A stretch of DNA of 64,000 nucleotides from Escherichia coli (GTDB lineage: Bacteria > Pseudomonadota > Gammaproteobacteria > Enterobacterales > Enterobacteriaceae). The notes below the pieces were generated by a model. The model saw only the letters and a list, made by a program, of their open reading frames with translations, made no database searches and was not told where the DNA came from. Made by a program: the position numbers and the translations under genes. Shown piece by piece: positions 29,227-31,193 of the stretch. The stretch's first letter is position 1; each line of letters opens with the position of its first letter. Location: NCBI RefSeq assembly GCF_011045215.1, contig NZ_CP049201.1; one strand, given 5' to 3'.

Positions 29227-29619
29227 ATGTACGCAAAATCCTTTCTCGCTCTTGATGGCAACGGACGTCTGACGGGCGCCCGTACAGCACAGGCCGCACC
29301 TTATGCTCACTACACCTGCCACTTGTGTGGCAGTGCACTCAGATACCATCCGCAATACGACACTGAACTTCCCTGGTTTGAACACACTGACGACAGGCTG
29401 ACAGAGCACGGTCAACAGTGCCCTTATGTCAGGCCGGAGCGCAGAGAAATACAGTTGATTAAACGTCTGCAGCAATTCGTACCGGATGCCTTACCCGTGG
29501 TGCGTAAAGCCAGCTGGCACTGCAGACAATGTCACCACGATTATTATGGGGAGCGGTACTGCACACACTGCCAGACCGGAGGTTTCAGTCTTCCCCGGAC
29601 AGCTCAGCAACTGTCTTGA
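29227..29619 (+). CDS. double zinc-ribbon protein with PWFEH motif, paralog 1 (130 aa)
   Basis: ORF 29227..29619; CHLCGS...PWFEH then CRQCHHDYYGERYCTHCQTGG; resembles the N-terminal C-x2-C...PHFAH module of CoiA-like proteins. Confidence 0.6.
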   Translation: MYAKSFLALDGNGRLTGARTAQAAPYAHYTCHLCGSALRYHPQYDTELPWFEHTDDRLTEHGQQCPYVRPERREIQLIKRLQQFVPDALPVVRKASWHCRQCHHDYYGERYCTHCQTGGFSLPRTAQQLS

Positions 29620-29628
29620 ACGTAAAAA

Positions 29629-30597
29629 TTATGGAGCAACGTGATGGTACGATTCATTCCATTCTTCGTTCTTTCTGAGCATTGCGTTCAGGATAGTCAG
29701 CAGCTTGCGTATACAGGTAACCAGCGCCACTTTTTTGGGTTTTCCTGCGGCAAGCAGTCGCATGTAAAACACCTTTATTACCGGGTTAAAGCGGGTTGCG
29801 ACAAGCGCTGCCATGTACAGGGCTGTTCGCACACCAGCCCTGCCGCCAAAGATGGTTCGTCGCCCTCTCATCGTGCCCGAGTCCCGGTTTACTGGAACCA
29901 TACCGACAAGCGCACTGATTTCACGCCTGGAGAGGTTACCCTGTTCGGGTACTTCCGCCAGCAGCGCAGCAGCCGTCATGGTGCCAACACCTTTAATACT
30001 GCTCAGTCGCTTAGCAAGCTCTTTGAAGTGGCTATGGATATGGCTGTTCATGTCAGCATCTAGTCGCGCAAGCTCGTCTTCCAGTGCTTTGATGATGATA
30101 TTAATGCTTTTCCTGTTCTATGGATGAGCAGGGTGCAACCGGTTTCTCTCGGCAACCAGCATCGTAATCAACTGCCGCCTACGAACTACCATTGCAGTGA
30201 GAACCTGACATTCAGTATCCGGCAGTGCTCTGATAAAGCGTTCCCGCTCCGGATGCCGGTTGAGAACCTCAGCCATCTGGGAAAGCACTCTGGCATCAAT
30301 ACTATCAGTTTTCGCGAGGTATCCCATGGCGCGGGCAAAGTCACGAGCTTGTCTGGGGTTAACCACGGCAAGCTCAAAACCTTCTGCCTGAAGCGCACAG
30401 ACTATGGCGGTTTCAAGTCCTCCAGTGGCTTTCATTAAAACCAGCGCAATGGCGTACATTCTCAACTCAGCAATGATGGCGTCAAAGCCATCACTGTCAT
30501 TGCCGACAGAAAATTGTTCAATAGCGCTGCTGGCGGCAATATCCAGTATCGCTTTCGAAACATCGATATCCACACAAAGTGAACCTGGCTGACTCAT
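29629..30597 (-). pseudogene. IS110-family transposase gene broken into two ORFs
   Basis: N-terminal ORF 30118..30615 (MSQPGSLCVDIDVSKAILDIAASS...) and C-terminal ORF 29629..30051 (…[42 protein letters not shown]...) are in different frames. Confidence 0.75.
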
Positions 30598-30782
30598 GAT
30601 TACCCATCCTTGCAAATGCGTTATGGCGTACTGACAACTGTTCGGGTTTCAGATGAGTGGCTCAGTGTATGCGCCATTCGCTGAGCTACGGGCTATGAAC
30701 CCCTTGAGGGATCGGGCTGCATACACCTTGCCAAATCTAATCACAGTTATTTTAACCAATTGTCAAGATACAAGGAGGAGAT

Positions 30783-31193
30783 ATGCGAATTCTGAACTGC
30801 TATATGGCGAATGACAGCAAAGGCCATTTTGTTACGGCGAAAGAAGCCGCGAAGCACAACCGACAGGACGTTTTGTGCTGTGTGTCCTGTGGTTGTCCGT
30901 TAACACTTAAGCGGGGAAATGACGGACAACCGCCGTGGTTTGAACATGACCAGATGACTGTTGCTGCGAAAATCCTGCTGCGATGCACCTGGCTTGACCC
31001 GGCAGAGAAAGAGGCCCGTCGTTTGCATCTGCAGGGCATGACGGTTCCGGATTATACGGTGAAGGTGAGAAAGTGGTTTTGTGTGATGTGTGACGAAGAT
31101 TATGAGGGGGAAAAGTGCTGCCCGCGTTGTGGTACTGGGGTATACAGCAGGGAGGGGGGGCTGCAGGAAGGCAACTGGAAGGATAGGAACTGA
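30783..31193 (+). CDS. double zinc-ribbon protein with PWFEH motif, paralog 2 (136 aa)
   Basis: ORF 30783..31193 after AGGAGG; CCVSCGC...PWFEH then CVMCDEDYEGEKCCPRCGTGV; same cysteine spacing as paralog 1. Confidence 0.6.
   Translation: MRILNCYMANDSKGHFVTAKEAAKHNRQDVLCCVSCGCPLTLKRGNDGQPPWFEHDQMTVAAKILLRCTWLDPAEKEARRLHLQGMTVPDYTVKVRKWFCVMCDEDYEGEKCCPRCGTGVYSREGGLQEGNWKDRN

Follow-up and report, generated by a model that had tools for sequence, protein, structure and literature searches.

Two Paralogous Double-Zinc-Module Proteins Encoded by a Putative Bicistronic Unit in the AlpA/YagK-YfjJ Module of Enterobacterales Islands

Introduction

Why are two small, cysteine-rich and only distantly similar proteins encoded on either side of a dead transposase gene in an Escherichia coli chromosome, and what might such a pair do? 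The locus lies in a 64,000-nucleotide stretch of E. coli DNA (contig NZ_CP049201.1 of RefSeq assembly GCF_011045215.1; hereafter "the window", whose first letter is position 1), and its two genes are called ZR1 and ZR2 here. A preliminary description, drawn from the letters and their open reading frames (ORFs), had outlined the cysteine motifs of the pair and asked what accompanies it. ZR1 and ZR2 prove to be ordinary members of catalogued, functionally uncharacterised families (DUF7828 and Zn_ribbon_11) and as such are not novel, and the window taken by itself carries a modest message, that of an ordinary pair interrupted by a dead insertion sequence (IS) in a decaying island. Comparison of loci indicates that genes of the two types, ZRa (as ZR1) and ZRb (as ZR2), form a conserved bicistronic unit in the core AlpA/YagK-YfjJ module of CP4-44/SRL-type islands of Enterobacterales.

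The wider interest comes from how common the ZR genes are: few uncharacterised accessory genes of E. coli are as widespread (~70% of its complete genomes contain ZR1-like DNA). The islands that bear them are home to adhesins, toxin-antitoxin systems and loci for resistance and phage defence, and the excision, replication and movement of such islands are poorly understood; a module of AlpA, an HUH-nuclease-like protein (Gp2, of the YagK/YfjJ or "inovirus Gp2" family), zinc proteins and a hairpin would be a testable candidate for the machinery. In the literature searched we found no functional work on DUF7828, DUF3279, Ybl85, YfjJ/YagK or ZR with AlpA, in agreement with the earlier remark that the pair has no described function, and no account of the Gp2-AlpA-ZRa-ZRb-Gp2′-DUF2913 regularity, of the ancestral overlap split by IS110 or of the stem-loop at the ZRa start that are reported below.

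Results and Discussion

ZR1 and ZR2 Are Diverged Paralogues with Two Predicted Zinc Sites Each

The two proteins align at 32% identity across 120 residues (BLASTP, E = 5e-16), which makes them paralogues and not a chance match, as had been proposed from their common double-zinc-module architecture. Each matches two Pfam hidden Markov models (HMMs), DUF7828 (PF25165) with E = 4.4e-31 for ZR1 (model positions 1–87 of 87) and 2.1e-30 for ZR2, and Zn_ribbon_11 (PF11682, formerly DUF3279) with E = 3.2e-9 and 5.7e-18, respectively. These are full-length matches with no sequence difference that sets the ZR proteins apart from the Pfam family; both models are matched by 21/21 aligned family members (DUF7828 at E ≤ 0.001), and RefSeq already holds identical proteins (WP_000271005.1 and WP_001221604.1) under the names "putative zinc ribbon protein" and "zinc-ribbon domain-containing protein".

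The first module reads C31-x2-C34 ... W50-F51-E52-H53 ... C65, and the ribbon reads W97-x-C99-x2-C102-x3-Y106-x-G108-E109-x2-C112-x2-C115-x-T117-G118. The family alignments show no variation at C31, C34, H53, C99, C102, C112 and C115, and at least 90% of the sequences have C65, so the cysteine motifs first noticed in the window are conserved in homologues; the other invariant or nearly invariant residues are W50, F51 (and E52) in the first module and W97, G108, T117 and G118 in the second. Two details of the motifs as first described need correction: C-x2-C and WF-x-H are family-wide, but the proline of the supposedly invariant PWFEH is not, and the ribbon follows the pattern given except that its spacers are x3 and x2 rather than x(4–5) and x(1–2). 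We predict a C-C-H-C zinc site (C31, C34, H53, C65) and a C4 ribbon site (C99, C102, C112, C115) in each protein.

A confident AlphaFold2 model has two domains (predicted local distance difference test score, pLDDT, 82), in which a small zinc module of beta/alpha type is followed by a long helix (residues 70–84) and the ribbon. A Foldseek search of AFDB50 returned the family itself only, named "Ybl85" or DUF3279 or misannotated (for instance as "Competence protein" or as the beta subunit of RNA polymerase), and a search of viral structures gave nothing significant. Neither the ZR proteins nor Gp2 has a significant match among Protein Data Bank (PDB) sequences, NCBIfam has no match for ZR1 or ZR2 at E ≤ 1, and PHROGs gave only a chance-level match for ZR2 (E = 0.02). 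As had been noted, both proteins lack a nuclease domain, since they end (at 130 and 136 amino acids) with the two zinc domains. A resemblance of the first module to the BIR-type C-C-H-C fold was considered and set aside as not significant in the search of PDB sequences.

Two side observations concern the proteins themselves. Outside E. coli (loci L016–L022) they have short cysteine-rich tails, …EVTTCVC or …EVTACAC in ZRa and …NYCCSTG in ZRb. These C-x-C and CC tails, which differ from those of E. coli, fall outside both Pfam domains and could provide a further site for a metal or a disulfide, perhaps one between molecules. ZR proteins in the databases include mosaics and comprise at least 3–4 subtypes (ZR1-like, ZR2-like, a "MNGIKTGLGITPGEH" type and a "SHPYIADMAMFLSP" type; the mosaic or unusual set is P0032, P0141, P0148, P0150, P0152, P0156, P0157, P0159, P0171 and P0200), and the same protein set has one in-frame ZR1-ZR2 fusion and one protein with two N-domains. 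The mosaic sequences suggest frequent recombination among paralogous ZR copies inside genomes.

A Single IS110-Family Insertion Split an Overlapping Gene Pair

The ancestral state was read from the uninterrupted locus of E. coli O157:H7 (L004), where ZR1 is 133 amino acids long and overlaps ZR2 by 13 bp, from the ATG of ZR2 to the TGA of ZR1 (…AGGAGGAAATATGCGAATTCTGA). Relative to this locus the window carries a complete IS110-family element (coordinates of this and other features are collected in Table 1) whose insertion point, CTCAG^GAGG with a 2-nucleotide AG ambiguity, lies inside the ZR1/ZR2 overlap and within the ZR2 Shine-Dalgarno sequence. The last ~6 residues of ZR1 have been swapped, from ...TTQEEICEF to ...TAQQLS, because the insertion cut off the ancestral tail; ZR2 retains its own Shine-Dalgarno sequence (AAGGAGGAG) and ATG, and the IS now separates it from ZR1. 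The transposase had been called dead, and its frame indeed contains a single in-frame stop codon; on identical DNA, RefSeq annotation (by PGAP) treats this IS110-family transposase as a pseudogene and notes an internal stop, and we take the window's transposase, judged by its reading frame, to be defective.

The element occupies this junction in ~723 of 5,426 complete E. coli genomes, and at ≥99% identity it occurs at no other site in them. In a sample spread evenly down the ranking of matching records, the empty site, recognised by a contiguous 198-bp match of both flanks, was the class met most often. The preliminary description was thus right that an IS lies between the two genes, but the main state, in most E. 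coli and in at least 10 further enterobacterial genera, is an overlapping pair: these comparisons indicate that a single IS110 insertion split it once, and that the flanking arrangement is secondary, lineage-specific and a minority. The ancestral ZRa-ZRb pair was probably translationally coupled, as the overlap suggests. A separate feature of the element is its ~157-nucleotide non-coding end (window 30616–30772, minus strand), which lies upstream of the transposase; IS110-family bridge (guide) RNAs are encoded in such a non-coding element end.

Table 1. Features of the ZR locus in the window, in order of position.
Feature	Coordinates	Strand	Remarks
"F8" cluster protein, 200–205 aa, function not assigned	25989..26606	−	adjoins AlpA in several genera
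AlpA-family excisionase-type regulator	26686..26892	−	inverted in E. coli
Hha/YmoA-family gene, 58 aa	27600–27776	+	flanked by alpA and Gp2; same strand as Gp2 and ZR
YagK/YfjJ-family "inovirus Gp2" protein	28492..29061	+	first gene of the Gp2-ZR1-ZR2 cluster; HUH motifs
Conserved ~85-nt non-coding stem-loop	29142..29226	+	abuts the ZR1 start; upstream DNA alignment
ZR1 (ZRa type), 130 aa	29227..29619	+	DUF7828 + Zn_ribbon_11 C4 ribbon
IS110-family insertion sequence, 1,165 bp	~29608..30772		transposase on − strand; comparison with the O157 locus
IS110 transposase frame	29629–30615	−	exactly one in-frame stop, 30118–30120 (…HPAHP*NRKS…)
ZR2 (ZRb type), 136 aa	30783..31193	+	DUF7828 + Zn_ribbon_11, architecture as ZR1
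ISL3-family transposase pseudogene	31477..33098	+	closes the module 3′ of ZR2

The Pair Is Old, Widespread and under Purifying Selection

Of the 5,426 complete E. coli genomes, 3,799 contain ZR1-like DNA and 3,426 ZR2-like DNA; the median copy number is 1–2 and the maximum 6. ZRa-type proteins are found across Enterobacterales, and close ZRb-type matches mainly in Escherichia. A scan of a genome collection found the tandem ZRa-ZRb pair, again overlapping by 13 bp, in Mixta, Hafnia, Superficieibacter, Tenebrionibacter, Siccibacter and an uncultured Enterobacteriaceae metagenome-assembled genome, and the overlap is also present on a Klebsiella IncFIB/HI1B plasmid, where PGAP annotated it independently; in the overlapping loci (E. 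coli O157, L016–L020, L022 and L033) the ZRb Shine-Dalgarno sequence lies inside ZRa. Budvicia and Serratia sp. Ag1 have intact, non-overlapping pairs, decayed or frameshifted versions occur in Salmonella diarizonae, Yersinia, Trabulsiella, Enterobacter and Enterobacillus, and many of the ZR entries in databases are incomplete or frameshifted. The presence of the tandem pair in many genera shows that the ZRa-ZRb duplication is old and predates their divergence, which bears out the earlier view that it was not recent. Pairwise dN/dS (the ratio of nonsynonymous to synonymous substitution rates) is ~0.1–0.3 for both genes across genera, at dS values of up to 1–3 (saturation), and both are therefore real genes under purifying selection.

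The family is small: when 1.84 billion cluster representatives were searched with a profile for Rosetta-stone fusions, there were 292 family matches, nearly all 60–170 amino acids long. The longer ones are frameshifted pseudogenes, one double-N-domain protein and an unrelated eukaryotic RanBP2-finger protein, and none of the 292 representatives showed an informative domain fusion. The family is found in none of 50,697 phage records and on 33 of 72,556 plasmid records; its absence from the former and rarity on the latter argue for an island rather than a phage function.

A Conserved Stem-Loop Abuts the ZRa Start

Immediately upstream of ZRa is a non-coding element that can fold into a long hairpin of three stacked stems: P1 (CCGCCA/TGGCGG), P2 (CACAC/GUGU-G) and P3 (GCUGCCCG/CGGG-A-CGGC). 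Further copies lie at L004 8526–8611, L016 7916–8000, L033 6917–7000 and at other loci. The element is better conserved than the adjoining coding sequence, with a mean nucleotide identity of 86% vs 71%; when E. coli is compared with other genera, the stem-loop is 80–92% and the coding sequence 59–66% identical. The GGGACGG of P3 is invariant, and the window copy has one mismatch in the 3′ arm of P1 (TGACGG). Divergent copies, when folded singly by minimum free energy, show the same architecture built of different stem sequences (GCCAUG/CAUGGC, GCACGAC/GUCGUGC and an 8-bp AGCAGGCA/UGCCUGCU).

A covariance model with a hand-defined structure, built from 14 close copies, detected a single copy at each locus, in every case next to the ZRa start and regardless of the gene upstream (AlpA or either Gp2 subtype), and no second copy elsewhere in the 64-kb window. 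In a 20-sequence alignment, 89.7% of the cells are paired, and double compensatory changes, counted on an alignment fitted to the structure model, occur in 10 of 19 pairs, as against 3.4 ± 1.4 in shuffles (0/500 of which reach 10) and at most 5 in slid controls. RNAalifold missed the long-range stems on a plain MAFFT alignment because the divergent copies were misaligned there. A scan of IMG/VR for the exact pattern yielded three more copies, each 19–25 nucleotides upstream of a ZR ORF and each with a Gp2 gene upstream, and Rfam gave no match to the element in the window at the gathering threshold and only chance-level matches upstream of it at E ≤ 10. We regard the stem-loop as a conserved structured nucleic-acid element, which may act either as RNA or as DNA.

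The distant single-copy ZR genes of AT-rich hosts have no match to the covariance model, and an inverted repeat (L036 5939–5968 and L034 2471–2516; e.g., ACCCTGAGT...ACTCAGGGT) lies ~25–35 nucleotides upstream of their start codons. This repeat could be the same kind of element as the ZRa stem-loop or a coincidence.

ZR Genes Keep Company with an HUH-Like Gene and AlpA

The preliminary description had called for a survey of co-occurrence with inovirus-Gp2-family and AlpA genes, and the association it suspected is strong. ORFs were called in all fetched loci and searched by HMM for the ZR and YagK/YfjJ families, and a YagK/YfjJ-family gene lies at most ~2.3 kb upstream of ZR and on the same strand in 21/21 loci with enough upstream sequence, a set that takes in the distant single-copy relatives and the three IMG/VR contigs. 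AlpA is present in the cluster at every locus that was checked for it. In most other genera AlpA is on the ZR strand and directly upstream of ZRa (L014–L016 and L033), and in E. coli alpA and the 200-amino-acid F8 gene are inverted relative to the Gp2-ZR genes (window 25989–27087, minus strand). The fullest form of the module, in PGAP annotation, is Gp2-AlpA-ZRa-ZRb-Gp2′-DUF2913, and the cargo 3′ of it varies (type I restriction-modification, Dpd, arsenic resistance). Distant single-copy relatives (~E = 1e-13 to the family profile) keep the order YagK_YfjJ_C-AlpA-ZR.

The Gp2 product in the window has the motifs of HUH endonucleases, RVDLRF, the HYH of KKHYHLMLL and the Y-x-x-K of DYLAKEHTK, and these are kept in two divergent subgroups as RVDL, HYH/HAH/HFH and Y-L-[AT]-K. 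It matches the Pfam models YagK_YfjJ_C (E = 7e-48) and REP_ORF2-G2P (E = 2.9e-5), and from its motifs and the weak profile matches we predict that Gp2 belongs to the HUH-endonuclease superfamily and nicks DNA. The second paralogue, Gp2′, which lies 3′ of ZRb in other genera (L017 8836–9471, L019 8906–9454, L033 7900–8466), is probably inactive, because both its HUH motif and its catalytic tyrosine are lost; the DUF2913 protein comes next (L033 8543–9148). The 64-kb window has no homologue of Gp2′ or DUF2913, and the ISL3 pseudogene follows ZR2 instead. The F8 protein had no match in NCBIfam, PHROGs or PADLOC scans, simple promoter and terminator scans around the module gave chance-level results only, and repeat scans found no iterons around it.

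The SRL island of Shigella has the same YfjJ-Hha-Vis/AlpA layout (orf39–41) as the window, and there an ORF of "no similarity" precedes it, in the position of ZR (PMC6980539). Islands of Pseudomonas integrated at the tmRNA gene have a core of intY, alpA, an inovirus Gp2-like gene and RadC with variable defence cargo, and their authors consider that the core genes likely serve functions of the element by a mechanism not known (bioRxiv 10.1101/2024.08.29.610337). The two kinds of island differ in host genus and integration site, and the word "zinc" occurs 0 times in the main text of that report (bioRxiv 10.1101/2024.08.29.610337).

What the ZR Proteins May Do

The explanation that we rank first, and to which we would give about one chance in three, is that ZRa and ZRb are zinc-binding adaptor or recognition subunits of an island DNA-processing step, which bind structured nucleic acid and/or the HUH-like protein. 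The two would be made together from one transcript and would act as non-enzymatic zinc-finger adaptors in excision and then in nicking/replication or mobilisation; their target might be structured nucleic acid, in the likeliest case single-stranded or hairpin DNA or RNA of which the stem-loop is an example, and/or they might keep the HUH protein bound to it. We count in favour of this the paralogy and domains of the two proteins, the ancestral overlap, the purifying selection, the synteny with the HUH-like gene and AlpA, the HUH motifs of Gp2, the conserved stem-loop, the absence from phage records, the lack of a catalytic domain, the lack of fusions and the small, stand-alone nature of the family.

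Known systems offer partial parallels. Filamentous phages encode a gene II HUH initiator followed by the small gene V single-stranded-DNA-binding protein, CTXphi has RstA and RstB, and the small protein of Ff phage binds both single-stranded DNA and the gene II mRNA leader. The ZR module likewise has a Gp2-like HUH gene followed by small (~90–140 amino acids) non-enzymatic proteins on the same strand, but the analogy is one of position only: neither gpV, which has an oligonucleotide-binding (OB) fold, nor RstB resembles the zinc-based ZR proteins in sequence or fold, and the ZR family, as noted, is not a phage family in the records searched. HUH Y2 transposases (IS91/ISCR and the Helitron Rep) have an N-terminal zinc-binding domain fused to the nuclease, and so combine a zinc module with an HUH nuclease in a similar way, whereas the ZR proteins are separately encoded, and no fused form was found among the 292 representatives.

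Several observations weigh against an adaptor role. The isoelectric points of the ZR proteins are near neutral (6.4–8.5), which is untypical for DNA-binding proteins, and nucleic-acid binding by ZRa-ZRb is itself a low-confidence proposal. Distant relatives make do with a single ZR gene. AlphaFold did not arrive at a confident assembly for a ZR1-ZR2 fusion joined by a (G4S)6 linker, for which 10 paired rows were supplied (pLDDT 62, predicted template modelling score 0.37), a result that we read as uninformative rather than negative because the alignment was shallow. K-12 has yagK and yfjJ without a ZR neighbour, and therefore the HUH-like protein is not universally ZR-dependent; its own assignment, moreover, lacks a solved homologue. 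As to the stem-loop, its covariation count depends on the fitted alignment given above, and both strands fold about equally and only modestly better than shuffles (z-scores −0.2 to −3.75).

A bolder form of the adaptor idea is that ZRa-ZRb, the stem-loop and the YagK/YfjJ HUH-like protein, under AlpA, make up an undescribed nicking/replication or mobilisation machine, in which the zinc proteins would license the HUH enzyme at the hairpin. The hairpin would then be an origin, a transfer site or its transcript, shared by the very common CP4-44-, SRL- and she-type islands of Enterobacterales, which are pathogenicity and defence islands. If such a machine existed it would account for the spread of "non-mobile" islands; we think its existence improbable on present indications, at somewhat less than one would wager on a regulatory role.

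That regulatory role is the main rival to adaptor function, a tentative possibility in which ZRa and ZRb control the transcription or translation of island genes and are not DNA-processing factors, either by binding the hairpin in their own 5′ leader (autoregulation) or by contacting RNA polymerase. The stem-loop fills the space from the upstream gene to the Shine-Dalgarno sequence of ZRa and travels with ZRa, as a cis-regulatory leader would, although its structure does not sequester that Shine-Dalgarno sequence. Where only one side of a stem has changed, a G-U pair is mostly retained, and 17/20 sequences share one U-G pair; the overall tally of 19 G-U vs 13 A-C cells does not, however, establish that the element is RNA, and Rfam does not recognise it. 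The cluster also holds AlpA and, in E. coli, the Hha-like gene, and a near-neutral isoelectric point fits protein-protein or RNA contacts. The second version would make the ZR proteins functionally like P2 Ogr and P4 Delta, small Cys4 zinc-finger activators of late genes in P4-type mobile elements, and Delta, a tandem duplication of an Ogr-like unit, parallels the ZRa/ZRb duplication. The ZR proteins differ from both in cysteine spacing and length, their islands are without late or capsid genes to activate, and with a Pfam cut-off as loose as E ≤ 10 they still match neither Ogr_Delta nor TraR/DksA nor another regulator family.

We think it quite unlikely that the pair is anti-defence or host-interference cargo, for example a protein pair with no relation to the HUH protein that inhibits a nuclease or restriction system of the host and is expressed early, as the "leading-region-type" genes of these islands would be. 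Small cysteine-rich proteins are commonly inhibitors, islands of this kind carry antirestriction, RadC/JAB and DUF932 genes of that type, and defence cargo (type I restriction-modification and Dpd) adjoins the module. PADLOC, however, has no match for ZR1 or Gp2 and only a chance-level one for ZR2 (E = 0.09, to a candidate family), and ZR is fixed beside AlpA and Gp2, on the opposite side of the island from the antirestriction block. Its position is constant where the cargo varies, which is the behaviour of a core rather than an accessory gene.

Just as hard to credit is descent from CoiA, a reading by which the ZR proteins would be truncated relatives that keep the N-terminal DNA-end- or single-strand-binding zinc finger and handle similar substrates. 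The likeness to CoiA N-termini that was pointed out at the start does exist at the level of the motif, since CoiA shares the C-x2-C ... aromatic-x-H ... C zinc module, and the C-x2-C ... F-x-H ... C pattern of ZR resembles what we take to be the usual CoiA N-terminus; some database entries are even named "Competence protein". By profile it is marginal: CoiA_N (PF25164) matches ZR2 below threshold (E = 0.02) and ZR1 not at all, with E ≤ 0.1 in 1/21 and E ≤ 0.001 in 0/21 family members, and there is no NCBIfam CoiA match. The ZR proteins differ further from CoiA in having an additional C4 ribbon and no PD-(D/E)XK domain, in an island AlpA/HUH context unrelated to competence, and in the absence of longer, nuclease-bearing relatives among the 292 representatives.

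Finally, the heavy degradation of the island, the P1 mismatch in the window's leader and the many fragmentary or frameshifted database entries might suggest non-functional relics or chance ORFs, a very improbable reading. The selection data, the invariant zinc ligands and the intactness of both window ORFs lead us to reject it for the family, with loss of function possible for the window copy.

Setting of the Locus in the Window

The ZR locus lies in a degraded island of the CP4-44 type, close to cobU and asn-tRNA genes, and the 3.1 kb of chromosome around the ZR genes is 100% identical to several complete E. coli genomes. IS110, ISL3 and IS3 elements and several pseudogenes mark the local degradation; since IS110 uncoupled ZR2 from ZR1 and ISL3 truncates the module, the local copy is probably a decaying relic. 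In the CP4-44 of E. coli K-12 the whole ZR-bearing segment has been lost. The central 25 kb of the window (14000–38900) is covered in one piece by 0 complete genomes of the collection. The best-matching genome, NZ_CP024134, which was used for annotation, is collinear with the window around the ZR locus and is not collinear with the distal part of the window, as the histidine-operon leader at window 1207–1330 (minus strand; Rfam His_leader, 131.6 bits) makes clear.

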